NCBI GenBank assembly: GCA_044343545.1
Contig: JAWBZR010000002.1
Span: forward strand, 3,522-67,521
Length of the DNA stretch: 64,000 bases
Direction of reading: 5' to 3'
DNA from: Candidatus Aenigmatarchaeota archaeon
GTDB lineage: Archaea; Aenigmatarchaeota; Aenigmatarchaeia; CG10238-14
A program made the translations under genes and the position numbers. Below, piece by piece: positions 7,093 through 55,400 of this stretch (the stretch's first letter is position 1; each line of letters begins with the position of its first letter). The notes beneath the pieces were generated by a model. That model did no database searches and had not been told where the DNA came from. It saw only the letters and a list, made by a program, of their open reading frames with translations.

Positions 7093-7772
7093 TTGGGTGA
7101 TTTTCTTTCATTAATTTGCTCGATCATTTTTTTTGGTACGACGCTTAAACTATTTTTAGCTTCCTTTAATTCCAAGCCAAGCAATACTCCCATGGAAATG
7201 AGTTGTTTGGGATCTCTTAGTTGCCAGTGCGAAATCGCTCCGGAACAAATAATAATTGGTGCATTATACTTTTTGCAAAGTTTTACATTCTGCATCATAT
7301 TTTTCAGTACGAGCGACCTCGTAGCTTTGGTGTTTATCAAAATATTTCTGAAATTAATTTCTATTGCTACATTATTCTTTGCAGCCTCTCTTGCAAGCAC
7401 GTGATTTAAACCAGAATCCTTTCTGTTGAATTCCGGATGCGTCAATATATCAACTTCTGGTGTTCGAACGGCAGCTCTATTCAGCTTCAAATCATGGCCT
7501 CTTACCAAAAGCATGTCGTATTCTCTTCGCAACTTCACCAATTTTTTTAACTCATTTATGTTTCGCGCTTCAAAACCAAGAAATATTTTTATCTTCACTT
7601 CCTTTTCGACTCTGTCTATTTCCCTTTGCAACTCATATATTTGCTCTTTATTTTTGAAGTATTCTGCAAAACAAATTCCAGAAAAACCCAACATCTTTGC
7701 TTGCGATGCTAATTCTTCTAACGTACTTTCACCTTCAGAAAAGGCAGAGTGAACGTGCATGTCAAAATACAT
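7062..7772 (-). CDS. rnp3: RNase P protein component Rpp30 (Rnp3), PHP/TIM-barrel-like
   Basis: MYFDMHVHS start. 236 aa. Conserved position upstream of pop5-psmA and overlaps pop5. Confidence 0.65.
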   Translation of the reverse strand: MYFDMHVHSAFSEGESTLEELASQAKMLGFSGICFAEYFKNKEQIYELQREIDRVEKEVKIKIFLGFEARNINELKKLVKLRREYDMLLVRGHDLKLNRAAVRTPEVDILTHPEFNRKDSGLNHVLAREAAKNNVAIEINFRNILINTKATRSLVLKNMMQNVKLCKKYNAPIIICSGAISHWQLRDPKQLISMGVLLGLELKEAKNSLSVVPKKMIEQINERKSPKWIMPGVREL

Positions 7773-7823
7773 ATAAGTAATATTGTCTTTGCAATCTTTA
7801 AATGATTGGTGAAAGTGGAAATT

Positions 7824-8342
7824 CTATCTTAATCCTCTTGCCCTTTTTCCAGAGGCCGTCAAGCCTCTAAATACTCTTCTTGTGTGTTGTGGTTCACAAA
7901 TCCAGTTTATTTTAGGGTCGCTTTTTATTGCAGGATGATGCTTATCGACGAGAATGACTTCATACCAAACATATTTACCATCTTGACCAACCCAATAAGA
8001 GTTTAGCACTTCGAGATTTGGATACTTTTTTGCTACTCTTTGCTCTGCTATTGTTTGCAAAGACAATTTTGGCGTAAATCTTTTTACACCTGCTTTTGAT
8101 GGTTTTCTTCCACCTCTCGTGTAATCCGGTCTATCTCTACCACCTCTTAGCAGCCTAACCCTTACAATAACAAAACCTTGCTTAGCTCTATAACCCAGCT
8201 CTCTTGCCCTGTCTGGTTTTGTAGGTTTTTCAATTCTTACAAATCTTTTTTCTCGCCTCCACTCTATCAATCTTTTTCTCATCAATTCTTTTACGGCTTT
8301 GCTCTTTCTCGTTTCTTTCAAATATTGATACAAACCTTTCAT
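7824..8342 (-). CDS. rpl15e: Ribosomal protein L15e
   Basis: Basic 172-aa protein with [13 protein letters not shown]...[20 protein letters not shown] matching L15e. Confidence 0.85.
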
Positions 8343-8393
8343 AAAAATGTCACAAAAACTATAATTAACGGAAAATTTAAATATTTTCGTTAG

Positions 8394-8684
8394 ATGAATT
8401 ACGAAGATGTTTGGCGTTTAATAAAAAAGATACCACGAGGAAAGGTGACGACATACAAAGAGATTGCTAGGATGTGTAACACGAGAGCATACAGGCTTAT
8501 CGGTATGGCATGCAAGAAAAATCCCTTCAAAGATGTTCCATATCATAGAGTTGTAAAAAGTAATGGCGAACTCGGTGGTTACGTTTTTGGTGTCGAGGAA
8601 AAGCGGAGACTTTTAGTCGAGGAGGGTATCGAAATAGTTAATGGTAAAATTAACTTGAAAAAACATTTATTTGCTTTTAATTGA
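8394..8684 (+). CDS. Methylated-DNA-protein-cysteine methyltransferase C-terminal (DNA-binding) domain protein with Tyr at the catalytic Cys position (alkyltransferase-like)
   Basis: VTTYKEIA...[21 protein letters not shown] aligns to the Ogt PCHRV motif. Codon TAT at 8541-8543. Confidence 0.7.
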
Positions 8685-8759
8685 CAAATCTTCTAACTCA
8701 TAGTAACAAAAACTTAAATACCTCAAAATTCGATTATTATCTTTATCGGGTGAAATGAA

Positions 8760-9068
8760 ATGAACACATGGGTCAAAATACTAATAGGTTTGTTGTTGCT
8801 TGGTTTGCCATTAGCCCTCTATGCATATGATTTAATGACAGCAGGTCCAGTAATAGAATTCAATATTTTGGGAAGAAAAATTCAGCTATCACCCTTAAGG
8901 TCACTTTTGATAGTTATCGAAGGTACAGTACCGCCATTTATAGCTTTGATAGGCCTGTTCATAGTCTGGCTTGAATTGGATGAGCTTAGAATAGAGAGAG
9001 AATTAAAAGCAGAAGAAGAAAAAGAAAAAGAAGAGGAAGAAAAACCAAAAAAGAAAAAAAGTAAATAG
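8760..9068 (+). CDS. Small membrane protein with two TM helices and a charged KEKEEEE...KKKK tail
   Basis: Hydrophobic segments plus a low-complexity acidic/basic C-terminus. Confidence 0.35.
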   Translation: MNTWVKILIGLLLLGLPLALYAYDLMTAGPVIEFNILGRKIQLSPLRSLLIVIEGTVPPFIALIGLFIVWLELDELRIERELKAEEEKEKEEEEKPKKKKSK

Positions 9069-11971: not shown

Positions 11972-13990
11972 ATGCGAGAGAGAGATATTTTAGATACTTT
12001 TATCGACTTTCTTAGAAATTATTATTATAGACAGTTAGCCGATGTTATAGCACGCGATGAAAAATCGCTTCAAGTGGATTTCAGCCTACTCGACAAATAT
12101 AGCCCGGAAATGGCCGACTTGTTATTGGAAAAGCCTGAAGAAATGTTAAAGTTATTCGAGGATGCGGTTGAGCAAATAGATTTGCCACAAAAGAAGAAGA
12201 TAAAAATAAGAATGTTCAATTTGCCTGAAAGTAGTAAAATAAGAATAAGAAACATCAGATCTGAACATCTAGGCAAATTGTTATGTGTTGACGGGATAGT
12301 TAAGAGAGCTTCTGAAATAAGACCGGAAATTGCTGAAATAGTTTTTCAATGCAGCGAATGTGGAGAAAAGATAACCGTTTTGCAGACAGAGAAGGAAAAA
12401 ACAATTGTTTATCCAAGCATGTGCGAAAATTGTAAATCAAAGAGAGGATTCAAAATTCTTGAACAAAAACTCTACGATGCAAGATGGATAGCAATAGAAG
12501 AGCCGTTTGAGATAACAACGGGTGAGAGACCGTCAGAAATAATGGTTTACTTGAAAGAAGACCTCACCACGCCAAAGATGCAATATAAAACAGACCCTGG
12601 AAATAGAATAAAAGTTATAGGCATATTAAAAGAAGTTCCTAAGAGAGCTGGAAAGGGAGGAAAATCAAGACAAATGGAGGTGTTAATAGAGGCAAACAAC
12701 ATCGAGTCAACCCAAACGGAGTGGGAAGACATAGTCATAACGCCAGAAGAAGAAAAAATGATAAAAGAGCTTTCCAGCGACCCAGACATTTATAATAAAC
12801 TCATAGCATCTTTAGCTCCGGGAATGTATGGTTTAGAAGTTGTTAAGCTTGCTATAATCTTGCAATTTTTCGGAGGCGTTCCAAAAGTATTAAAAGATGG
12901 AACAAGAATAAGAGGTGATATTCATATCCTCATAGTTGGTGACCCTGCTGTAGGGAAAAGCCAATTATTGAAACTTGCTTCTCAAATGATGCCGAGAGCA
13001 AAATACGTTTCTGGTAAGGGTGTGACGGGAGCTGGATTAACTGCTGCCGTTGTCCGTGACGAGCAGTTTCTTGGTGGTTGGGTGTTGGAAGCAGGCGCCC
13101 TTGTTTTGGCGAACAATTCTTTGATAAGTATAGACGAGTTTGATAAAATGGAAAAGAGTGATCAGATAGCAATGCACGAAGCAATGTCACTTCAACAAAT
13201 TTCTATAGCCAAAGCTTCAATTGTAGCCACTTTACCTGCGAAAACAGCTGTTTTAGCAGCAGCCAATCCGAAATATAGCAGGTTCGACCCTTACATACCC
13301 ATAGGAGAGCAAGTCGACATACCAGAAACTTTACTTAGCAGGTTCGATGTAAAATTTGCTTTAAAGGATATACCTAATCCGGAAATAGACGAAAAAATGG
13401 TGGATCATGCTTTGAAGGCAAGACATTTTAATGTGGAAGAAGCAGCACCGTTAATAGATCCAGAATTATTCAAAAAATACGTTGCTTATGTGAGAATGCA
13501 TTGTCACCCTGTTTTAACCGAAGAGGCAGCGAAGAAATTAAAGGAATTTTATTTGATGATGAGAAGTTCATCCGTTTCTGGCGAAAGGCAGGCCGTAGCT
13601 ATAACAATGAGACAATATGAATCATTGATAAGATTGGCCGAAGCGAGTGCTAAGGTTCAACTAAGGAATTTTGTTACAGAAGAGGATGCCGAGAGAGCGA
13701 TTGAGATAATGAAGTATTCTTTGAGACAATTTGGTTTTGACGAAAAAACTGGTACTTTTGACATAGATAAAGCTGAAGGTGGAATGAGTAGTGCCCAAAG
13801 AAGCAAAATAAAGATTTTGTTAGATGTTATAGCCGAGTTGGAGAAAGCTTTCGGGAAACTTATACCATTAGAAGATCTCAAAACTAAAGCTTTAGAAAAC
13901 GGTGTTGATGACGTTGAAATGATGATAAGGAAAATGAAAGAAGAAGGTGTAATTTTTGAGCCGAAGCACGGTTATATACAGAAAATTTAA
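11972..13990 (+). CDS. mcm: MCM replicative helicase
   Basis: C4 zinc finger (CSECGEK...CENC), Walker A GDPAVGKSQLL, Walker B IDEFDKM, arginine finger SRFD, and a C-terminal wHTH. Confidence 0.9.
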   Translation: MRERDILDTFIDFLRNYYYRQLADVIARDEKSLQVDFSLLDKYSPEMADLLLEKPEEMLKLFEDAVEQIDLPQKKKIKIRMFNLPESSKIRIRNIRSEHLGKLLCVDGIVKRASEIRPEIAEIVFQCSECGEKITVLQTEKEKTIVYPSMCENCKSKRGFKILEQKLYDARWIAIEEPFEITTGERPSEIMVYLKEDLTTPKMQYKTDPGNRIKVIGILKEVPKRAGKGGKSRQMEVLIEANNIESTQTEWEDIVITPEEEKMIKELSSDPDIYNKLIASLAPGMYGLEVVKLAIILQFFGGVPKVLKDGTRIRGDIHILIVGDPAVGKSQLLKLASQMMPRAKYVSGKGVTGAGLTAAVVRDEQFLGGWVLEAGALVLANNSLISIDEFDKMEKSDQIAMHEAMSLQQISIAKASIVATLPAKTAVLAAANPKYSRFDPYIPIGEQVDIPETLLSRFDVKFALKDIPNPEIDEKMVDHALKARHFNVEEAAPLIDPELFKKYVAYVRMHCHPVLTEEAAKKLKEFYLMMRSSSVSGERQAVAITMRQYESLIRLAEASAKVQLRNFVTEEDAERAIEIMKYSLRQFGFDEKTGTFDIDKAEGGMSSAQRSKIKILLDVIAELEKAFGKLIPLEDLKTKALENGVDDVEMMIRKMKEEGVIFEPKHGYIQKI

Positions 13991-13998
13991 ATCTTCTT

Positions 13999-14640
13999 GT
14001 GCCGATAAAGTTATTCATGAAAATTGGTTTGATAGATTGGATTCTTGACACTTTTAACCTGAGAAAGCCAATAAGGCTTGGAATATATGGCAGCGTTAAT
14101 GTTGGCAAAACTACTCTCGCAAATAGAATATCTCTCGATTGGACTGGCGAAGAAATAGGAAAAGTATCTGAAATACCACATGAAACAAGATTTGTGCAAA
14201 AAAAAGAAAGAATTGAAATAAAACATGGCGGTAAAAAGATTATAATAAACTTGTTAGATATGCCTGGTTTAGCAACAAAAATAGATTACAGAGATTTTTT
14301 GAAGTATGGAATGAAAAGAAAGGAAGCTAAGGAGAGAGCTAAGGAAGCAACTCAAGGAGTTATAGAAGCAATAAAATGGTTGAACAACGTCGATGCCGTT
14401 TTAGCTGTTATGGATGCTACAAAGGATCCTCTAACTCAAGTGAATGCAACGTTGCTCGGAAATTTGGAAGCGAAGAAAATTCCTGTGATTATAGTTATAA
14501 ATAAAATTGATTTGAAAAACGCAAAGCCGCAACATATAAAGGAAGTGTTTTCACAATATCCATCGGTGGAAGTTTCCGCTCTTACAGGAAAAAACATGGA
14601 AAAACTTTACGAAATGATTGCAAAATACGCGAGGAGATAA
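13999..14640 (+). CDS. Small P-loop GTPase (COG2229-like predicted archaeal GTPase)
   Basis: G1 GSVNVGKTT, G3 DMPG, G4 NKID. 213 aa. Confidence 0.6.
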   Translation: MPIKLFMKIGLIDWILDTFNLRKPIRLGIYGSVNVGKTTLANRISLDWTGEEIGKVSEIPHETRFVQKKERIEIKHGGKKIIINLLDMPGLATKIDYRDFLKYGMKRKEAKERAKEATQGVIEAIKWLNNVDAVLAVMDATKDPLTQVNATLLGNLEAKKIPVIIVINKIDLKNAKPQHIKEVFSQYPSVEVSALTGKNMEKLYEMIAKYARR

Positions 14641-14643
14641 CTG

Positions 14644-15057
14644 ATGAAAAAATTAAAGTTGGATTTCATTTCATCGTCCTTGCTAAGCAATCAAGATCCA
14701 GAAAAGAGAATAGATTTTATTCTAAAAAAAATAAAGGAAGGCTCGATAGTCGTGATAGATGGCGTGTTGAAACCGGAAGAAGAAATGAATTTGATAAGAG
14801 AAACGATGAGAAGAGTAGATGATGGTTTTCCGGGAATCGAGGTTTGCAGCATGAAGAAACCTTCAACTTTCTTTAATGTTTTAATAGACAAATTTATGGA
14901 TCAAAAAGAAAACATTCAAAAATTTTTTGGAACTTTAACTGGAAACACTTCTATTGCTACAAATCTAAGAACCGGCATAACTTTTATAGGTCCGGCTAAA
15001 TTAATTAAAAAGATAAAAAAGAATCCAGATTCATTTTCTATACTGGCAGAGGTTTAG
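14644..15057 (+). CDS. Conserved archaeal protein of unknown function, DUF2073-like. Follows the GTPase with a 3-nt gap.
   Basis: 137-aa ORF tightly packed between the GTPase and a Zn-ribbon gene. Family assignment from memory only. Confidence 0.4.
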   Translation: MKKLKLDFISSSLLSNQDPEKRIDFILKKIKEGSIVVIDGVLKPEEEMNLIRETMRRVDDGFPGIEVCSMKKPSTFFNVLIDKFMDQKENIQKFFGTLTGNTSIATNLRTGITFIGPAKLIKKIKKNPDSFSILAEV

Positions 15058-15060
15058 TTT

Positions 15061-15435
15061 ATGTCCCACAAATGTCTTCGCTGCGGAAAAGTGTATGATG
15101 ATAACGACCCACAAATAATTAATGGTTGCACTTGCGGCTCCATATTTTTCTTCTTTATCAAAGACAAGGTTGAATCCAAGAAATTAGAAGAGATAGAAAA
15201 AACCTTGAATTTGCAAAGAACAACTCTTGAGGCTGAGTTGGAAAAAGAATTCATTAAGGTTGCTACCGGTGAAAACAATTTCGGAATAGAGACGATAAAA
15301 AATCCGAAAGATGGTGTTTATGAAATAAACATCGATGCTCTTATGAAAAGGCAACCTTTGATAATATTAAGGCAAGGAAAAACTTATTTGATACATTTAC
15401 CTTCTGTTTTTGAAAAAGTGAGAGAGAGACATTAA
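15061..15435 (+). CDS. Zn-ribbon protein (COG3364/DUF2072-like)
   Basis: N-terminal CLRCGKVYDD...CTCGS Zn-ribbon, then a coiled-coil region. 124 aa. Confidence 0.45.
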   Translation: MSHKCLRCGKVYDDNDPQIINGCTCGSIFFFFIKDKVESKKLEEIEKTLNLQRTTLEAELEKEFIKVATGENNFGIETIKNPKDGVYEINIDALMKRQPLIILRQGKTYLIHLPSVFEKVRERH

Positions 15436-15454: not shown

Positions 15455-15775
15455 TTATTTAATTTCTTGTGATATACCTTCACTTGTTGTCAAGTTTTTT
15501 ATTATACCAGCATTAACTGCTTGATAAATCTCTATCGTCTTGTTTTTTTGTTGGTTATAAAATATTTGTTTTTGATAGCAATAGCAATTATCATCTTTCA
15601 CAAAAGCAAATTCGAGCCCAGCGAATTCACAAAATTGCGTGCATATAGATTTGTCTGGTTTCTTGATCGAATGACTGCCAAGATAAAAACCTGCCAAGAA
15701 AACAGCTATTAAAATTAACAATCCGAGCAAGTCCCTCTTTCTTATTCTTATGTAATCGCTCTCTTGTGTAGGCAT
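15455..15775 (-). CDS. Small membrane-anchored Cys-rich protein
   Basis: N-terminal TM helix. CTQFCEF...DDNCYCY cysteine cluster. Confidence 0.35.
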   Translation of the reverse strand: MPTQESDYIRIRKRDLLGLLILIAVFLAGFYLGSHSIKKPDKSICTQFCEFAGLEFAFVKDDNCYCYQKQIFYNQQKNKTIEIYQAVNAGIIKNLTTSEGISQEIK

Positions 15776-15832
15776 ACAATTTATATCTTTTTCAACAATT
15801 TAAAACTTTTTTATTGAAAAAACAATTTATAT

Positions 15833-16285
15833 TTGATGAAAAAGTTTTTGATATTAACAATAATTTTTATATTGATTTTGTTGAATTCTTCTTTTTCTCA
15901 AGATATAGACGTAACTCTGTATTTAAATTCGAGTAGAATCGAGTTAGATAATGGAATAAATGTTCGAGGGATCGTGACAGAGAATGGTGAACCTCAACAA
16001 TCAACAGTGTATGTGAAGGTGGATGACAAGATTGTTTGCATTATTTTTACCAATTCTTCAGGCATTTACGAATGTTCTTTTAGTTTGAATAAAGTCGGAA
16101 AGTTTCAAATATTCGTCACTGCCATTACTTCATCTCATGCAAAGACGGTGAGCAAGGAAATATCTACATTCATTTCTTTTGGTGAAAAAATTAAAGAAGT
16201 TTATTGCAAGCAAAAAGCCGTGTTGATTCAAAATATCGATGGTTCTATAAAATTTTCTAAAATGAAAATTTGTATTGGCGAGTGA
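15833..16285 (+). CDS. Secreted protein. First gene of the surface/pilin-like locus.
   Basis: N-terminal signal-like MMKKFLILTIIFILILLNSSFSQ. Beta-rich Ig-like composition. Confidence 0.4.
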   Translation: MMKKFLILTIIFILILLNSSFSQDIDVTLYLNSSRIELDNGINVRGIVTENGEPQQSTVYVKVDDKIVCIIFTNSSGIYECSFSLNKVGKFQIFVTAITSSHAKTVSKEISTFISFGEKIKEVYCKQKAVLIQNIDGSIKFSKMKICIGE

Positions 16286-16291
16286 TGAAAG

Positions 16292-17506
16292 ATGAATTGG
16301 TTCGAGTTCGTTCTTTCAACTTTCATTTTTCTTTTATTTTCAACTTTCATCATTTTTTATTTCACAAATAGAGTTTCTTCGAGATTGGATGATATGAAAT
16401 TTTATGAGATGAAAGCTAAAGCAACAATAGTTGAAAGCATTTTACTTTTTCCTGAAGAGTCAGAAAAATTTGAGGAATTTGAAACTATTACTCAAAAAAC
16501 ATATTACAGAGTTTTGATGGTTGATGGAAAAGAGAATCAACGAAAAAAAGAAATAGTAAACTTCTTTATACACATTGACGAGAATTGTGAAAAAAATATA
16601 ACAAAAGATAGTATTTTAATTTTTGATGAAAATGCTACTCAAGTTCCTTTTGTTTTTTATGAAGAAAACTATTGCGGTAACGGAAAAATAAAAAATGCAA
16701 AAATAATTTTTTTTGATTCTTTCAATGCCACAAGAAATTATTTCATCTACTATTCATGTTTAAATTTTACTCGAGAAACAATTTTCAACTCCACTTTGGT
16801 TGGATTTTGGAATTTTGATGAAGAAGGTTTCATAGCTTTAGACAAAACAGAAAATAAAAATCACGGAGAAATCATCGATTTGGAAAGAGTCCCAGGAAAA
16901 TTTGGTATGGCATTGAATTTTTCAGGTCAAGGTTTTGTGAATGTAAGTAAAGGCAACAATCTATCCAATGAAAAAACATCAATAGAATTTTGGGTTTTCA
17001 TAACAAACTTTACCGAAGCAACCATTATTGAAAAATACGATTCATATGGAGTTAAGCTCGAAAATGATAAAATAAAAGGATATGTTGTTGGCTTACCTTC
17101 AAATTATCAACCTTCTTTTTCTATTGATCAGAACAAATGGCATCACATAGTTTTTACGTCCAATGGCACTTTACATAATCTTTACATTGATGGAAGCTTG
17201 CGCAATTCAACTGAATACGAAGCGAATATTCCTTTGAATGTCGGGCCATTAAGTATAGGTGCAACATATGATGGAAGCAAAAAATTTTATGGTTTGATAG
17301 ATGAAGTGAGAATATATTCTCATTTCATGGAGGAAGACGAGGTGGAAAGGGCGAATGATTCCAAACCTATCAACATAATGATATATCCGGAAACAGAGAG
17401 CAAAATTATTTCAATTAATAAAATTAAAGCTATGAAAAATTTTGATTCAAGTCAAATAGATCGAATTTTTGGTTTTCACAATTTCTATGTAGAGGTGGGA
17501 GAATGA
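16292..17506 (+). CDS. Membrane-anchored LamG / concanavalin-A-like lectin domain protein
   Basis: N-terminal TM. LamG signature ...GMALNFSGQGFVNV...WHHIVFTSNGTLHNLYIDGSL...GLIDEVRIYSHFMEEDEV. Confidence 0.55.
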   Translation: MNWFEFVLSTFIFLLFSTFIIFYFTNRVSSRLDDMKFYEMKAKATIVESILLFPEESEKFEEFETITQKTYYRVLMVDGKENQRKKEIVNFFIHIDENCEKNITKDSILIFDENATQVPFVFYEENYCGNGKIKNAKIIFFDSFNATRNYFIYYSCLNFTRETIFNSTLVGFWNFDEEGFIALDKTENKNHGEIIDLERVPGKFGMALNFSGQGFVNVSKGNNLSNEKTSIEFWVFITNFTEATIIEKYDSYGVKLENDKIKGYVVGLPSNYQPSFSIDQNKWHHIVFTSNGTLHNLYIDGSLRNSTEYEANIPLNVGPLSIGATYDGSKKFYGLIDEVRIYSHFMEEDEVERANDSKPINIMIYPETESKIISINKIKAMKNFDSSQIDRIFGFHNFYVEVGE

Positions 17507-17883
17507 AAGGAATAAACTTTATGATAGAGTTGGCAATTTCCATAATTTTAATTTTTTCCATTTTCTATTTATTCACAAAAAACGTGGAAAAAAAAGATTT
17601 TTTGTCAAAACAAAAATATGAGATTTTTCAAGCGCTTGAAATTTTAGATCAATCAAATAATCTTAGGCCTCATGCTTTGAGAAACGAGGCAAATATTATA
17701 AAAGAAAAATTATCGTATTTTTCGCCTACAAAAAATTATTCTGTTGTTATATTTAACAAAACTACCAATACAACAGAAATTCCAAATATCGAAAGTAGAA
17801 ATGTTGCTATAGTTGATTATTTGATTGCAGGTGATTTCGGTCTTTATGAGCCAAGAATAATAAAAGTTTTCATATGGGATTAA
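17503..17883 (+). CDS. Prepilin-like protein with class III signal peptide (MKG|INFMIELAISIILIF)
   Basis: KG cleavage-like motif followed by a hydrophobic helix. ATGA start/stop overlap with the upstream gene. Confidence 0.4.
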   Translation: MKGINFMIELAISIILIFSIFYLFTKNVEKKDFLSKQKYEIFQALEILDQSNNLRPHALRNEANIIKEKLSYFSPTKNYSVVIFNKTTNTTEIPNIESRNVAIVDYLIAGDFGLYEPRIIKVFIWD

Positions 17884-17884
17884 A

Positions 17885-18457
17885 ATGAAGGGTCAGGCCA
17901 TTTTAATGTCAGCAATGATTTTGATAATGGTTTTTACCATAATAGAATTAGACATTTTTAATTTTTTGCAAAATCCAACATTAGATAAAGACTACAATTT
18001 ACACTATTTTGAAAAATTAAAAAAAGAAATAACTCTAGCTTTAACAAACGAAAATTCTGTTGAAAACTTTTTAGATTTTTTACTATTAATAAAACAAGAT
18101 GCTGCTTTGAAAAATTACAATTTTTCTCTTTTTAGTGTCATAGCAACAAACGATACAAACAAACTTAATGTAAGCGTTTTGAATTATCTTGACACTAATA
18201 TCAATGTCACATTGAAAATCAACACGACGCCTCATCAAATACAAAATATTCTATTAATGAAGGGAGAATGTTATAATTTTACGTTTGATATAGAAAGCGA
18301 TAGTGATTACGAACTTGAAATAAATTACACTGAAAACATAACCATACCTATAATTTTTAGAGAAAAAAATAACATTTTTGCTTTCATAGATGTATTTCTT
18401 CAGAATGAAAATATAAGATACATAGATAAATTTCGAAAGTCATATTATTTCTCATGA
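17885..18457 (+). CDS. Prepilin-like protein with class III signal peptide (MKG|QAILMSAMILIMVF)
   Basis: Canonical archaeal pilin N-terminus (KGQ + hydrophobic stretch). 190 aa, Asn/Thr-rich, so possibly N-glycosylated. Confidence 0.45.
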   Translation: MKGQAILMSAMILIMVFTIIELDIFNFLQNPTLDKDYNLHYFEKLKKEITLALTNENSVENFLDFLLLIKQDAALKNYNFSLFSVIATNDTNKLNVSVLNYLDTNINVTLKINTTPHQIQNILLMKGECYNFTFDIESDSDYELEINYTENITIPIIFREKNNIFAFIDVFLQNENIRYIDKFRKSYYFS

Positions 18458-18927
18458 AAGGATTGAATGAATTTGTGGCCATCGCTATTATACTATCTAT
18501 CGCTATATCCGGTATAGTAATTTCGATGGAATTTATAAAACCCATGATTGAAAAATCTCGAGACAATTTTATTGTGAATGAAGCTATAAGCAATATTTTG
18601 AAGATAAGAGATACTTTATATGAAATTGTTAACGAGGGTGAGGGCTCTAGAAGACTCATAAACATAGTAGTCTCTGATGGAACATATACTTTCGATGAAA
18701 ATGCAGATGCAATAAACTTCACATACCAAATGAAGGGAAATTTGGTTTTTTTGGGAGAAAAGCGTGGTATTCAAATTAGAACTGTTGATCGGCAACTAAT
18801 TATGTCACTCAATTTTAGCAACATAGATTTTATCAATGAATTTTACATATATAAAGGAAGTAAAACGATAATGTTAAGTTATGAAGATTTCGAGAATGGC
18901 AAGGCCAAAATATCCATTTCAGATTAA
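18454..18927 (+). CDS. Prepilin-like protein with class III signal peptide (MKG|LNEFVAIAIILSIAISGIV)
   Basis: Same architecture. ATGA overlap with the upstream gene. Confidence 0.45.
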   Translation: MKGLNEFVAIAIILSIAISGIVISMEFIKPMIEKSRDNFIVNEAISNILKIRDTLYEIVNEGEGSRRLINIVVSDGTYTFDENADAINFTYQMKGNLVFLGEKRGIQIRTVDRQLIMSLNFSNIDFINEFYIYKGSKTIMLSYEDFENGKAKISISD

Positions 18928-18986: not shown

Positions 18987-19124
18987 ATGGCAATTTGGAA
19001 AAACATCAAGTGTCCTCGATGTGGTAAGCCAAATGAAAGAGAAGTTTTGAATAAAAGAAACGGTTCTTGCATTTTTTGCGGCTTTAGAATCGCTTCAAAT
19101 CTAAACAATTTTATGAAAAAATGA
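18987..19124 (+). CDS. Small Zn-ribbon protein (45 aa). Below the track cutoff.
   Basis: MAIWKNIKCPRCGKPNEREVLNKRNGSCIFCGFRI: CPRC...CIFC. Confidence 0.3.
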   Translation: MAIWKNIKCPRCGKPNEREVLNKRNGSCIFCGFRIASNLNNFMKK

Positions 19125-19331
19125 AACTTTTAAGCAAAAATGCTACTGTTTTCGCTTTGATTTTTTTCGCAATCCAAGCATATCCATTCATTCTTTTTCT
19201 TTCTCAAACATTTATGACAACCGATTTTCCCGCATCTATCACACTCTCTCATCTCTATGGTTTCGCTGTTGCAATTCAAGCATTTTAGAGTCATCGAATT
19301 AAATATTTGGAAAATTACAAATTAATAAAGT

Positions 19332-42332: not shown

Positions 42333-42448
<116 letters not shown>

Positions 42449-42833: not shown

Positions 42834-42948
42834 ATCCCCCCGGCCGGATTTGAACCAGCAACCCTTCGGTTTCTGACGAGCATACGCCGGTGACGAATGC
42901 TTTTAGCAAACGTCTACAGCCGAATGCTCTACCGTTGAGCTACGGGGG
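42834..42948 (-). tRNA. tRNA-Tyr (anticodon GUA) with an intron of about 43 nt at the canonical position
   Basis: Reverse complement: CCCCCCG TA GCTC AACGGTA GAGC A TTCGG CTGTAG[A CGTTTGCTAAAAGCATTCGTCACCGGCGTATGCTCGTCAGAA]A CCGAA GGGTT GCTGG TTCAAAT CCGGC CGGGGGG A. The C1:G72 pair is the archaeal Tyr identity element. Confidence 0.8.
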
Positions 42949-43000
42949 GTCATAATTACAATAATCAATTTAATTAAAATATTTTAACCATATAATTTTT

Positions 43001-44398
43001 CTATTTCACTCTTTTGGAGAAGGTGACGATTTTTTCAGCAATCTTGTTTATGACACTCTTCCCTGATTTATAACTAAAGTAAGCTTTTGGCAACCTTACC
43101 TTTCCATCAATATTCATCGTTGGCTTTATTCTGTACGACAAAACTCTATCTTCTTTCGGTTTAAGTTTGTCTATTCTCCATATTAAATTTGTACCCTTTG
43201 GCGTGACTTTGATTTCAGGTTTCAACGTGTCGAATTCTTTGACAACGATGAATACAGGAGGAACAATATCTTTAACAACAACGTTGTCTATTTCTCTTAA
43301 AGAATTATTTTTTATGTGCAGTGTCACGAGATTTTCTTTTTCCAAATCTAATTTTTCAGAATATTTTTTCATCAATGTTGGTTTGTGTAAGAGGGAAAGA
43401 ATAAATGTCATGAAAAGTAGGAACAAAAATATAACAAAAGCAGCGCTACCAAATCTCAAAGAATATTGTAAGTTTACAGATTGATTGGGCTTGACATCAC
43501 TAAAACTCCACGTATAAGTTATTCTATTTTCTTTTTCTTCGCTTTTTTCTGGCTCAATTTCAGGATAAAAAAAGTATTTGGAAAATTTCGGCATGGTTTC
43601 CGTGATAATTATATTTTGAGGATAATTTCCCTTGTTCGTTACATTTATTGTGAATGTCACTTCCAACAAAGTTTTATGTATCTTTTTTTCTTTTTCTATC
43701 TCGCTATATTTTTTTATCGTGAAAAAACTTGATTTAGAATGAATAGGATTTCCAAATTCATCATACATAAAAACTTGAACTTTGTATAAGCCAGGTTCAT
43801 ATGTATTTTTTATTTCAAACGGTATCGACAAGGTTTTTGTTGTCAAAGGTTGCAGAATCAACTCTTCATCCAAAACCGCTATTTGCTCTTCATCCTTTAA
43901 TATTTTAGTTTTAACCATCACGTGTTTGCCCTGCGTTTTGTCCAAGTTAACTAACATTGGTTTTATGATTAGTGTTTCTTTCGGCGAAAAAACATCTTGA
44001 TTTAACGTCAAGTCAGAAAAATACGTTCCCGTTCTTCTTCTTATATTCAATATTATGTCCAAGCTTGCTATTTTGGTTGTTTGTGTTGATTTTGCTTTGA
44101 TACTAAAAACTACATTTCCCACATCTGCATCTATCGGCGGCTCTATGACAAATTTTATAATTTCTTCTTCGTTCGGATCTAAACTTACAAAATATTTTTC
44201 TAAACTTATCCAGCTACTGGGCCAAATTCCTATGTAAAAAGTATCTCTTTGTCCATCATCGTTGATTATTTTGAACTTGACTGTTGTTTTTTCTAAAGTA
44301 TAAACAGTTTCTGGATAATCCACCATTTCTATTCTTAATGACGATGCAAAGGGGAATAGTAAAAGCAAAAAAACAAGGACGAATTTCACCAGTTTCAT
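43001..44398 (-). CDS. Secreted/surface protein with N-terminal signal peptide and C-proximal TM anchor
   Basis: MKLVKFVLVFLLLLFPFASS signal, beta-rich body, hydrophobic stretch FVIFLFLLFMTFILSLL. 465 aa. Confidence 0.4.
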   Translation of the reverse strand: MKLVKFVLVFLLLLFPFASSLRIEMVDYPETVYTLEKTTVKFKIINDDGQRDTFYIGIWPSSWISLEKYFVSLDPNEEEIIKFVIEPPIDADVGNVVFSIKAKSTQTTKIASLDIILNIRRRTGTYFSDLTLNQDVFSPKETLIIKPMLVNLDKTQGKHVMVKTKILKDEEQIAVLDEELILQPLTTKTLSIPFEIKNTYEPGLYKVQVFMYDEFGNPIHSKSSFFTIKKYSEIEKEKKIHKTLLEVTFTINVTNKGNYPQNIIITETMPKFSKYFFYPEIEPEKSEEKENRITYTWSFSDVKPNQSVNLQYSLRFGSAAFVIFLFLLFMTFILSLLHKPTLMKKYSEKLDLEKENLVTLHIKNNSLREIDNVVVKDIVPPVFIVVKEFDTLKPEIKVTPKGTNLIWRIDKLKPKEDRVLSYRIKPTMNIDGKVRLPKAYFSYKSGKSVINKIAEKIVTFSKRVK

Positions 44399-50995: not shown

Positions 50996-51086
50996 AGCCC
51001 CGTCGTCTAGATGGCTTTGCCAGGATAACGGTCAAGGATAGCGGGCTTTGGACCCGTTGACAGCGGTTCGAATCCGCTCGGGGCTA
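50996..51086 (+). tRNA. tRNA-Gln (anticodon UUG) with an insertion (intron) of about 19 nt in the D-arm
   Basis: AGCCCCG TC GTCT AGATGGCTTTGCCAGGATAACGGTCAA GGAT A GCGGG CTTTGGA CCCGT TGAC AGCGG TTCGAAT CCGCT CGGGGCT A. The A1:U72 pair and 3' half match archaeal tRNA-Gln. The 5' half is 19 nt too long. Confidence 0.7.
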
Positions 51087-53032: not shown

Positions 53033-54607
53033 ATGATTACAGAGAGAGAGTTTGCCAAAATTTTTCTGAAAGAGTTTAGAGCAAGGAAGCCGAAAACAAA
53101 AGAAGAAGTGATCAAGCTTAAAAGAGAATTGGCGGCAAAGTTTGGCATAGAAGAACCGACAAATCCAGATATACTGAAGTATGCAAGCGATGCATTTATA
53201 GAAAAGTACAGATCTCTTTTTGAAATAAAACCGACGAGAACCATATCCGGCGTGGCTACTATTACGGTTGCTTGTAAGCCAGCTTATTGTGGCGGTAACT
53301 GCAGTTATCGTCCTCCTTTAAGCAAGTTTGTGCCCAAGAGCTATTCTGCAAATGAACCAGCTATACAGAGAGCTATAAGAAACAAGTTTGACCCTTATAG
53401 ACAGGTGAGAGATAGATTGAGCCAATATAAAATAATGGGTCATCCCACGGACAAGATAGAAATCATAGTTTTGGGCGGAACCTTTTTGGCAACAGAAAAG
53501 GAATATCAGCATAAATTTATTAAGGGAATTTTTGACGGATTAAACGGAAAGAGAGCTTCCACTTTGGAAGAAGCAAAAAGGATCAACGAAACAGCAAGAC
53601 ATAGATGTGTAGGTTTAACGATAGAGACAAGGCCAGACTATTGTTTCGAGGAGCATGTCGATGCTTTATTGGAGTATGGCTGCACGAGAATAGAGTTGGG
53701 AATGCAATCGATATATAATGACGTCTTGGATAGAGTTAATAGAGGTCATCATGTTGAAGAAACTATAAGAGCTATACAAATTGCAAAGGATTCTGCTTTT
53801 AAGATCATATCTCATGTGATGCCATTCTTGCCTGGCTCAAGTGTTGAGAGGGATATAGATATGTTTAGGGAAATTTTTAGAAGTGAAGATTTGCAAGTAG
53901 ACGAATTCAAGATATATCCTTGCGTTGTTGTTGAAGGAACAAAACTCTACGAGGAATGGAAGCAAGGAAAATATACTCCACCAACTTTGGAAGAAGCAGT
54001 CAAAGTTATTGTTGAAATGAAAAAAATGGCACCTCCTTGGGTGAGGTTCAGGAGAATTTTTAGAGATATTCCGGCAAACGAAATTGTTGCTGGTGTGAAG
54101 AAAAGTAACTTAAGAGAAATAGCGATAGAAAGGTTAAAGAAAGAGGGTTTGTGGTGTAGGTGCACCCGTTGTAGAGAGCCAGGGCATGCAAAGAAAATTT
54201 ACTGGAGAGAAGTAGATAAAAGTCATATAAAGCTTGTCAGGAGAGATTATAGAGCATCGGGCGGAGATGAAATATTTCTTTCGTTTGAAGATGTCAAGAA
54301 TGATGTGCTTGTAGCTTTACTACGGCTAAGAATACCATATAAGCCGCATAGAAGAGAAATAGATGATAAGACAGCGTTGATAAGAGAGATTCATACCTAT
54401 GGAAAAATGGTGCCTATAGATAAAGATGATTCGAATAGCTGGCAACATAAAGGTTTTGGCTCATTGTTGCTTGAAGAAGCAGAAAGAATTGCTAAGGAAG
54501 ATTTTGACAAGAAAAAAATGATAGCTATATCGGGAGTTGGAGTAAAGAGTTGGTTTATGAAGCATGGATATAAGTATGAAGGACCTTATATGAGCAAATT
54601 TATTTAA
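53033..54607 (+). CDS. elp3: Elp3 homolog (radical SAM + GNAT, tRNA U34 carboxymethylation)
   Basis: ...KPTRTISGVATITVACKPAYCGGNCSY..., radical SAM core, C-terminal GNAT (QHKGFGSLLLEEAERIA). 524 aa. Confidence 0.85.
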   Translation: MITEREFAKIFLKEFRARKPKTKEEVIKLKRELAAKFGIEEPTNPDILKYASDAFIEKYRSLFEIKPTRTISGVATITVACKPAYCGGNCSYRPPLSKFVPKSYSANEPAIQRAIRNKFDPYRQVRDRLSQYKIMGHPTDKIEIIVLGGTFLATEKEYQHKFIKGIFDGLNGKRASTLEEAKRINETARHRCVGLTIETRPDYCFEEHVDALLEYGCTRIELGMQSIYNDVLDRVNRGHHVEETIRAIQIAKDSAFKIISHVMPFLPGSSVERDIDMFREIFRSEDLQVDEFKIYPCVVVEGTKLYEEWKQGKYTPPTLEEAVKVIVEMKKMAPPWVRFRRIFRDIPANEIVAGVKKSNLREIAIERLKKEGLWCRCTRCREPGHAKKIYWREVDKSHIKLVRRDYRASGGDEIFLSFEDVKNDVLVALLRLRIPYKPHRREIDDKTALIREIHTYGKMVPIDKDDSNSWQHKGFGSLLLEEAERIAKEDFDKKKMIAISGVGVKSWFMKHGYKYEGPYMSKFI

Positions 54608-55400
54608 GATATGGGGGGTGGGGTATACGATGAGTTGATCGTGTGAGATATTCTAAATTATAAGTTTCATAGGCATATAACCAAAAATGAGTACCTTTTT
54701 TTGTTTGATTTAATAGCATATTCCTTGTTTTTCTAAGACGATCTAAAGGTATTCCATATTCCAAAACTGCCTCTCTCAATGCTTCTCTAGATACATAAGC
54801 TAACTTCTCAGGATCTTCTCCTCTGTCATTTATCACCTTTGCTACCCTTTCAGCCCTTTCTTTCGTTGCTGCATATGGATGCAACATAGTTATGTAGTAT
54901 ACTCCTAGGTGTGGAGCAGGTACGCGTAGACCATTTGAAACTATTACATCAAATCTTTCCTCAAAATCAATATCAATTACGTCTACCCTTCCTTCAAAAA
55001 CACAAAGTGGTACACGACCTAAATATGTTCCAGCATCATATAGACAAAAATCACCATTATATACATGAAATGAAGGGTTTCTTTCTAGCTTTCTTATTCT
55101 ATTAACACCTAAAATAACACCTTCATATCTATTTGTTCTTTCAAGGAAAGTTCCATTATTGCTAACAACGATTCTTTGAACCTCTCCAACACAACCACAA
55201 GCAACGACAATATCCAAATCATTTGGTTCATAATTTAAATTTTTAGACAAATAAAGTAAAAGAAATGATCCTACAATTCTCACTCTATCATATCCTAATT
55301 CATTTAATAAAAATTTAACCGCCTTTTCACCAACATCCTTTCTCATAAAATAGTGATTTAAAAAATAGTTTTTTAAAAATTTATGTTTTCGTTTTGCCAA
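54600..55400 (-). CDS. Nucleotidyltransferase-fold protein (GS...DxD), function unknown. Likely true start at Met19 (about 55346).
   Basis: IVGSFLLLYLSKNLNYEPNDLDIVV NTase motif. Arg-rich and locally GC-elevated unlike its neighbours. 266 aa. Confidence 0.45.
   Translation of the reverse strand: MAKRKHKFLKNYFLNHYFMRKDVGEKAVKFLLNELGYDRVRIVGSFLLLYLSKNLNYEPNDLDIVVACGCVGEVQRIVVSNNGTFLERTNRYEGVILGVNRIRKLERNPSFHVYNGDFCLYDAGTYLGRVPLCVFEGRVDVIDIDFEERFDVIVSNGLRVPAPHLGVYYITMLHPYAATKERAERVAKVINDRGEDPEKLAYVSREALREAVLEYGIPLDRLRKTRNMLLNQTKKGTHFWLYAYETYNLEYLTRSTHRIPHPPYLK

Follow-up and report, generated by a model that had tools for sequence, protein, structure and literature searches.

DPANN archaea are thought to live attached to hosts, and how a host is recognized and held is largely unknown. 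Among described archaeal systems, the clade-1 or system-1 pili of methanogens, Thermococcales and some DPANN have, next to an ATPase, a pair of TadC genes, a minimum of five minor pilins, and adhesins (PMC4858521; bioRxiv 10.64898/2026.04.22.720090), and DUF2341 is the domain of the PilY-like adhesins proposed for clade 1 (PMC4858521). In Methanococcus maripaludis, the minor-pilin operon lies apart from the ATPase/platform locus, and the pilins carry a Gln at +1, the hallmark of the Epd-type pilins, and a Glu at +5, a position conserved in bacterial and Epd-type pilins alike (PMC3875500). Additionally, the description of Candidatus Mancarchaeum acidiphilum Mia14 reports LamG-like proteins as expanded in DPANN, some of them beside type IV pili loci of the kind seen in Methanococci/Thermococci, and proposes a role in host contact (PMC5498576). 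This report addresses a locus of five genes, g1 to g5, in a stretch of 64,000 nucleotides (nt) of contig JAWBZR010000002.1 (GenBank assembly GCA_044343545.1), from a metagenome-assembled genome of a Candidatus Aenigmatarchaeota archaeon; the whole stretch is called the window, and positions are counted from its first letter. With a probability of roughly 0.7, we read the locus as an accessory minor-pilin and LamG-adhesin operon of an Epd-like type IV pilus whose machine is encoded on another contig. The features of the locus are the following, with protein lengths in amino acids (aa) and a slash marking a predicted cleavage position.

15776..15835, no strand: upstream region of g1, conserved divergent intergenic/promoter region, 82% mean identity over five genomes
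15836..16285, + strand: g1, secreted protein with a Sec-type signal and four Cys (open reading frame call; ATG start as in locus L001)
16292..17506, + strand: g2, leaderless pilin-like scaffold with an inserted LamG domain, candidate adhesin
17503..17883, + strand: g3, 126-aa prepilin-like protein, MKG/INFMIE..., Glu at +6
17885..18457, + strand: g4, 190-aa prepilin-like protein, K-G/Q, leader of variable length
18454..18927, + strand: g5, 157-aa prepilin-like protein, [MV]KG/LNEF..., pilin "lollipop" fold

Class III-type N-termini and the modular g2 protein

The pilin-like character of the locus rests in the first place on the N-termini of its last three genes. A scan for M-x(0-10)-[KR][GA] followed by 20 hydrophobic residues, run from every possible start of all open reading frames (ORFs) of at least 60 aa in the window, gave four matches, namely the consecutive g3, g4 and g5, and a shadow ORF antisense to an RNase PH gene. 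The MKG-plus-hydrophobic starts to which a first-pass annotation of this DNA had drawn attention are therefore not a product of chance, since g3, g4 and g5 are the only genuine ORFs in the window that carry the pattern. All three proteins, and all their orthologues, have a short leader that ends in [KR]-[GAS] and leads directly into a stretch of some 20 hydrophobic residues. In g3, the residues M1, K2, G3 and E9 are invariant among 8 orthologues, the Glu falling at +6. The K-G-Q of g4 is invariant, while its leader varies across orthologues (MKG, MEVKG, MGLKG, MKNKG, MSKG), and g5 starts with [MV]KG in the window's clade and with MRSKG or MRTKA in the other, distant clade. Over 6-8 orthologous loci, the K-G (or K-A) of g3-g5 is thus fixed and the length of the leader is variable. 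Because a basic residue and a Gly or Ala are fixed, the leader length varies and a hydrophobic stretch comes next, these N-termini are read as class III (prepilin) signals, and we infer cleavage after Gly3 by a class III peptidase of the PibD, FlaK or EppA type. With regard to the +1 Gln and +5 Glu known as the DUF361 motif, g4 has its K-G-Q, g2 a Glu or Asp at residue 5 and g3 its Glu at +6; neither residue is found in g5 or in the candidate major pilins described below. Beyond the N-terminal segment, g3, g4 and g5 were rejected as mutual paralogues (hhalign probabilities of 4-17%).

The predicted structure of g5 adds to this picture. The model (predicted local distance difference test, pLDDT, 93.3) has a protruding helix of 56 residues, 6-61, followed by a beta-sandwich, so that the pilin-like combination of N-terminal helix and beta-sandwich, which the first-pass annotation had named as its structural test, is found in g5. 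The first 96 residues of a DUF7289-family protein, which has a KG/hydrophobic start of its own, are also homologous to the g5 profile (hhalign 97%, E 2e-11).

The second gene combines a helix, a beta-domain and a LamG domain. The LamG, or concanavalin A-like, jelly-roll that had been recognized from the sequence alone is confirmed both by the sequence profile (82.7 bits, against a Pfam threshold of 27.6) and by the predicted fold. The g2 model, built from five sequences (pLDDT 71.6), shows a helix of 47 residues, 3-49, a first beta-sandwich at 67-155, a linker of low confidence and then the LamG jelly-roll at 193-345, where the pLDDT is above 90. The earlier label of a LamG membrane protein holds for the LamG domain; as a plain membrane protein g2 no longer qualifies, given its 47-residue N-terminal helix and the leader-bearing relatives described below. 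Within g2, LamG is 54-58% identical, against 40-45% for the first domain; the idea that the LamG head is hypervariable within the window's clade was rejected, since LamG is the best-conserved part of the protein.

An exhaustive HMMER search with residues 1-193 of g2 gave about 42 cluster representatives, nearly all of them matching from the first residue. LamG is present in 27 of the 43 members of this family. Among the relatives that are devoid of it, the orthologue at locus L009 carries a different beta-rich insert, and those at L010, P0227 and P0232 carry no insert. The L009 orthologue lies at 7665-8960, its insert having no Pfam match, and the insertless one of L010 at 92-805. All of these relatives, whether LamG-bearing, otherwise inserted or insertless, retain the first domain and a conserved C-terminal tail. 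As the insert is swapped or missing while these two parts are kept, LamG appears to be an exchangeable cassette within a conserved scaffold.

The start of g2 is unusual in its own way. Most members of the family are leaderless and begin M-x-x-x-[D/E]-hydrophobic, whereas in five of the 43 a class III leader precedes this motif (MKG/FSSMD, MKG/LAQID, MQKRG/FSSFD, MKA/FNQID and ...QKG/LNQID). In these five, the acidic residue becomes +5 of the predicted mature protein. The g2 of the window starts MNWFE..., and since its Glu at residue 5 equals the +5 acidic residue of the leader-bearing relatives, it begins where the processed relatives would begin. We therefore read g2 as a pilin-like protein that has apparently dispensed with its leader. 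Other assignments were tried for g2. DUF2341 as the identity of the domain in front of LamG was dropped, as no Pfam match appears at E<=5 on residues 41-203 of g2 or on the L009 and L010 orthologues; a DUF2341 match occurs in one of the 43 relatives (E=0.0024). An NCBIfam TafC match was disregarded, scoring 27.9 bits against a cutoff of 410 and covering the LamG region alone. The C-terminal beta-propeller of PilY1/PilC has no Pfam match in g2, whose model consists of helix, beta-sandwich and LamG only.

The locus and its linkage to pilus machinery

The five genes are co-oriented and closely packed on the + strand at 15836-18927 (ORF calls of the window), and all five are present where the first-pass annotation had placed them. 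For g1, the ATG at 15836 is a likelier start than the TTG chosen by the gene caller at 15833, one codon upstream. The junctions that had suggested translational coupling were read again from the sequence and stand: g2/g3 and g4/g5 are ATGA overlaps (17503-17506 and 18454-18457), g3 and g4 are separated by a single nucleotide at 17884, and g1 and g2 by a 6-nt spacer. Each of the five proteins has a single hydrophobic segment, which is N-terminal. The richness in N-x-S/T sequons that had been remarked upon is real, as g1-g5 hold 28 sequons in 1,026 aa, a density of 2.7 per 100 where cytoplasmic neighbours have about 0.4, and it exceeds the expectation from composition-shuffled sequences, at 12 against 4.3 +/- 1.9 in g2 and 8 against 2.5 +/- 1.3 in g4. 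Together with a conserved Cys pair in g2 and fast divergence relative to the flanks, this enrichment is, at the level of sequence, an extracellular signature.

Five other Aenigmatarchaeota contigs (L002, L003, L004/L005, L013) have the same order g1-g2-g3-g4-g5. Of these, L013 was found by a DNA-pattern scan of reference genomes with a g5 alignment of five sequences; the same kind of scan of reference genomes with g2 alone gave no match, and a scan of metagenomes gave only a contig that was already in the set. In the window's clade, the module sits between MCM-OapABC with a 106-aa Cys-rich protein on one side and a transporter of the major facilitator superfamily (MFS) on the other. In a distant group (L006-L008, L009), endonuclease V, not the MFS transporter, comes after the module. 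The tight or overlapping junctions are preserved in all loci of both clades. Where the flanking proteins of two genomes are 74-97% identical, g1-g5 are only 37-57% identical, and this fast evolution is as expected for proteins that would be exposed at the surface. The earlier label of an island does not hold for a locus whose gene content and order are fixed and syntenic across genomes, and the hypervariability for which a check had been proposed dissolves, on comparison, into a fixed gene content with fast-evolving sequences.

The g2 and g5 proteins of the window are 100% identical to NCBI entries labelled Candidatus Aenigmatarchaeota. The surroundings of the module in the window are archaeal housekeeping genes, including MCM, TBP, FEN1, proteasome, RNase P proteins, exosome, EF-1alpha/EF-2 and RNA polymerase. 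The first-pass annotation had seen no assembly ATPase or platform gene nearby, and this is confirmed for the whole window, where Pfam scans of about 40 further ORFs gave only housekeeping functions. The picture is different in relatives. At L009, on a 610-kb contig of GCA_030018415.1, a T2SSE ATPase with PilB3_C is followed by T2SSF, a second T2SSF, two pilins, a 191-aa class III protein and then g2-g3-g4-g5. The two pilins are small divergent genes, starting MKG/ISPVIASVLLIAFT and MSKG/LSIIVGAVILIAAT (MSKG/LSIIVGAV); the first of them scores 23.1 bits with Pilin_N, below the cutoff of 25.2, and the candidate major pilins neighbouring the module or the machinery score 19.9-23.1 bits overall. 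At L010, a pilin gene of the same family comes directly after g5. From the linkage at L009 and L010, the module belongs to a type IV pilus locus in these relatives.

As for the pilB and pilC homologs that had been suggested earlier as a target, an ATPase and two T2SSF genes lie on another contig, very probably of the same organism. This locus, L016, holds the ATPase P0172, two T2SSF genes (291 aa, E 1e-16, and 274 aa, E 1e-18), two pilins and a 139-aa protein starting MKA/, followed by ribosomal proteins. The pilins start MKG/ISAFLSAILVIAAT and MSKA/LSPIVASVILIATT and, at 142 and 145 aa, are the candidate major pilins; paralogues of g2-g5 are not found at L016. The ATPase matches T2SSE and PilB3_C in Pfam, its best match in PDB being the Archaeoglobus fulgidus GspE2 (2oap; E 1e-124), followed by FlaI. 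A platform of two genes after the ATPase is also found at L009 and L015. The P0172 contig comes from the same run as the window's copy (SRR21619491) and is also in assembly GCA_044343435.1, and the ATPase accessions, MFH8080582 and MFH8092685 in two submissions, lie 175-235 numbers from those of g5 (MFH8080407 and MFH8092450). As the run is the same and the accessions fall in the same series, L016 and the window are very probably parts of one genome.

In the relative with L004, the module and the ATPase locus (L015) are about 500 kb apart on one contig of 780 kb (GCA_017880035.1). The likely counterpart, by position and N-terminus, of the 191-aa class III protein of L009 stayed at the ATPase locus in the window's organism. 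Of the borders of the module, the downstream one, marked by a 45-aa Zn-ribbon protein, is common to both clades and the upstream one is not. Since only the downstream border is common, a rearrangement in the window's lineage split g2-g5 from the machinery and put g1 in front of them. As a separate observation, large secreted proteins of 567, 908 and 317 aa come after the ATPase/platform/pilin locus at L015 (15236-20613), the 908-aa one with Fn3_assoc and CHB_HEX_C domains and Thr-rich repeats. L016 is devoid of them at that position, and the surface cargo next to the pilus genes varies by lineage.

Proposed role and alternative readings

The core of the first-pass proposal, prepilin-like proteins and a LamG adhesin that serve a pilus system encoded elsewhere, is supported by comparative genomics and structure prediction. 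In the mechanism that we propose, g2-g5 would be translated together from their tight or overlapping junctions, which suggest a fixed stoichiometry, and would enter the membrane via their N-terminal hydrophobic helices. A class III signal peptidase encoded elsewhere would trim g3-g5 after the conserved K-G. The partners of the four proteins would be the ATPase, the two-gene platform, the two major-pilin candidates and one further pilin-like gene on the other contig. Through their N-terminal helices, g2-g5 would most likely associate into a low-copy complex that primes filament assembly and is carried at the filament tip, ahead of the 142/145-aa major pilins. The LamG head of g2 would be displayed there and would bind a glycan or glycoprotein, be it of a surface or of a host cell, an adhesin role and a type of ligand that we infer, and g1 would be a Sec-secreted protein transcribed along with the others.

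Several points weigh against this reading. At E<=1 in Pfam and NCBIfam, g3-g5 match no curated pilin family (Pilin_N PF07790, Class_IIIsignal/DUF361, archaellin); g3 and g4 have no sequence match in PDB, and a PDB profile search with g5 also gave nothing meaningful. The Asn at +2 in g3 and g5 is atypical for the FlaFind motif. No Peptidase_A24 (prepilin peptidase) gene is found in the window, L009, L015 or L016, the loci that this search covered. The g2 protein has neither a class III leader nor a positive charge ahead of the helix, which leaves doubt about its topology and about how it would enter a filament. The formation of a complex by g2-g5 and its place at the tip are proposed wholly by analogy with bacteria. 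Additionally, the model of Makarova et al. puts archaeal minor pilins at the base of the pilus, by analogy with minor archaellins (PMC4858521).

This last point leads to the main rival, in which g2-g5 are indeed pilus proteins but work at the base, or in assembly and passage through the envelope, and not as a distal adhesin, and LamG binds the glycosylated envelope (S-layer) of the cell itself to open or anchor the exit of the filament. Besides the location of minor pilins near the pilus base by Makarova et al. (PMC4858521), it has been suggested that the cell wall may be made ready for the passing filament by adhesin-like or S-layer-like proteins (bioRxiv 10.64898/2026.04.22.720090). The missing cleavable leader of g2, which could leave the protein anchored in the membrane, is compatible with such a role, and the strong conservation of LamG relative to the rest of g2 fits a self ligand as well as a host ligand. 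However, related lineages retain the g2 scaffold but have another head on it or none, which is a better fit to adaptable external binding than to an essential role in envelope passage, and the bacterial sets of four pilins with one large member sit at the tip. We consider this alternative unlikely, though it is the one that stands closest to ours.

In a second alternative, the proteins would be unprocessed single-pass surface proteins that form no filament, and MKG would be the short positive N-tail of a type II anchor. The absence of pilin matches for g3-g5 in Pfam and NCBIfam, of a leader in g2 and of a prepilin peptidase in the window and the related loci inspected all agree with it, as does the housekeeping neighbourhood of the locus. 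What makes it very improbable is that K-[GA] is kept while leader length varies, that the 56-residue protruding helix of g5 is typical of pilins, and that the genes adjoin an ATPase, platform and pilins at L009 and a pilin at L010. Furthermore, g5 is homologous to DUF7289, and g4 has the invariant +1 Gln of the Epd pilins.

Class III sugar-binding proteins serve transporters in Sulfolobus, although MFS transporters are not known to use binding proteins. The corresponding bindosome-like or pseudopilus alternative, in which class III-anchored binding proteins pass sugars to the adjacent transporter, can draw on the MFS gene about 400 nt downstream in the window's clade, on the resemblance of LamG to carbohydrate-binding modules and on the use of type IV filament (TFF) machineries for substrate binding (bioRxiv 10.64898/2026.04.22.720090), yet it is the least credible of all, as no homology to solute-binding protein families was found and a functional link to the transporter is rejected because the other clade has no such neighbour, endonuclease V following the module there instead.

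The minor-pilin and adhesin reading is accordingly the one that we retain, and it can be extended further. In its boldest form, g2 would stand for an undescribed class of "leaderless" modular pilins that enter the pilus without processing by prepilin peptidase and exchange their heads as cassettes. Together with g3-g5, g2 would then make up the first tip complex to be defined for a type IV pilus of archaea, with which a DPANN symbiont would take hold of its host. We put this forward tentatively and regard it, as a whole, as rather doubtful. It is well supported that the locus is a fairly ordinary example of a known system, the linkage between LamG and pili in DPANN being already in the literature; only in the leaderless, cassette-bearing g2 does it reach a little further than earlier descriptions.

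The locus nevertheless offers a concrete candidate set for host contact in Aenigmatarchaeota, a group with no cultured representative in the data examined, consisting of four conserved pilin-like proteins, one of them lectin-headed, and the location of the matching pilus machine can be given along with them. The four protein families are not yet recognized as pilus components in curated databases. DPANN genomes are often described as "missing" their pilin genes (e.g. PMC9563170), and the g2-g5 families would therefore improve DPANN annotation. Finally, the leaderless g2 scaffold with its exchangeable head provides a small, testable point on the diversification of pilus adhesins.

Flanking genes and comparison with known systems

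The first gene, g1, has a Sec-type signal, MKKFLILTIIFILILLNSSFS/QD (...SFS/QD), one N-terminal hydrophobic segment and four Cys, and a weak Filamin/Ig-like hint (E=0.048) was all that domain searches gave. Between genomes the protein varies in length, with 149 aa at the lower end and at least 734 aa at the upper; the orthologues are 37-40% identical, and g1 is 27% identical to the C-terminus of the protein of at least 734 aa in L006/L007. No g1 homologue was found in L009, where a class III protein stands in that position. The inclusion of g1 in the pilin/adhesin set by the first-pass annotation is thus upheld as far as secretion is concerned, and given up as far as ancestral membership is concerned, there being no counterpart in L009. 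Probably g1 is co-transcribed with the module, but by sequence comparison it does not belong to the ancestral core. The intergenic region upstream of g1 (15776-15835) is 82% identical over five genomes, against about 38% for the g1 protein, and some 25 nt ahead of the ATG it holds CTTTTTTATT, which is invariant and may be a TATA-like element for a leaderless g1 mRNA. The same divergent region has three copies of ACAATTTA[TA]A, which could be a shared regulatory site.

On the other side of this region lies a single-pass membrane protein of 106 aa (15455-15775, - strand), with a small extracellular domain of four Cys for which there is a weak WSC hint (E=0.0045). The protein, wedged between OapC and g1, occurs in the window's clade only and is 61-70% conserved there. 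The 45-aa Zn-ribbon protein (MAIWKNIKCPRCGKPN...; 18987-19124, + strand) is 72-89% identical over both clades, which is conservation at the housekeeping level; it invariably follows the pilin module, in L009 with endonuclease V in between, and marks the ancestral downstream border. Both had been suggested as members of the module, for which no evidence was found: one is restricted to a clade, the other conserved like a housekeeping gene, and they are neighbours by synteny only.

Further observations concern the rest of the window. MCM and then the origin-associated proteins OapA (a GTPase), OapB and OapC lie directly upstream of the module at 11972-15435 (+ strand), and a replication origin may be near. 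A strand mis-call is probable at 19121-19294, where the caller of the Logan copy gave a 55-aa ORF on the + strand (19121-19288); a 54-aa minus-strand protein with paired CxxC (19130-19294) is conserved in relatives at 43-68% (tblastn) and was called in L003 and L004. An unannotated ORF of 266 aa (54600-55400), considered as a prepilin peptidase, was rejected, having no hydrophobic segments. An Rfam tRNA over 115 nt (42835-42949, - strand), missed by ARAGORN, is probably an intron-containing archaeal tRNA; 5S rRNA adjoins it at 42334-42448, and a borderline tRNA match is found at 51013-51086. A 465-aa protein with a DUF11 domain (43001-44398, - strand), which has an N-terminal signal and a hydrophobic segment at about 310-328, is a candidate envelope protein unrelated to the module.

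Compared with the Epd or system-1 pili, the system described here likewise has an ATPase and a platform encoded by two T2SSF/TadC genes, several different class III minor pilins in one operon with an adhesin-like protein that bears a binding domain, and a minor-pilin operon away from the ATPase and platform, with a +1 Gln in g4 and an acidic residue near +5 in g2. Unlike those systems, it shows no sequence match to DUF361/Class_IIIsignal or DUF2341, no EppA or MinD/FleN gene is present in the loci seen, and its candidate major pilins have about 140 aa with a globular domain, rather than being Flp-like proteins of about 70 aa. The leaders are also shorter than those of M. maripaludis Epd, with 3-5 residues against 5-13. 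The split platform speaks for membership of system 1; sequence matches to DUF361 and DUF2341, which would go with it, were not found here, and the ATPase is placed by its Pfam and PDB matches.

The resemblance to Mia14 lies in the pairing of LamG proteins with type IV pili. Mia14 belongs to another phylum, Micrarchaeota, and the comparison is by description only, as its report (PMC5498576) contains no analysis of pilin-like N-termini or of an accompanying three-gene set.

The bacterial minor-pilin sets, FimU-PilVWX with PilY1 and GspH-I-J-K, share with g2-g5 four pilin-like genes side by side in a fixed order, which are unrelated beyond the N-terminal segment and include one far larger member that bears the binding function. 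They differ in belonging to another domain of life and in having no sequence homology to g2-g5, and it is by analogy with them that a tip location is suggested here. In contrast to the PilY1 sets, the putative adhesin is itself pilin-like, with a LamG head rather than the beta-propeller of PilY1. A lectin-bearing modular pilin is known from Streptococcus sanguinis, namely PilC (PDB 7oa7); it is bacterial and has a canonical class III leader, whereas g2 is leaderless and has its lectin inserted between the first beta-domain and the C-terminal tail. The S. sanguinis PilC and the bacterial four-gene sets are, in function, the closest analogues of the g2-g5 module.

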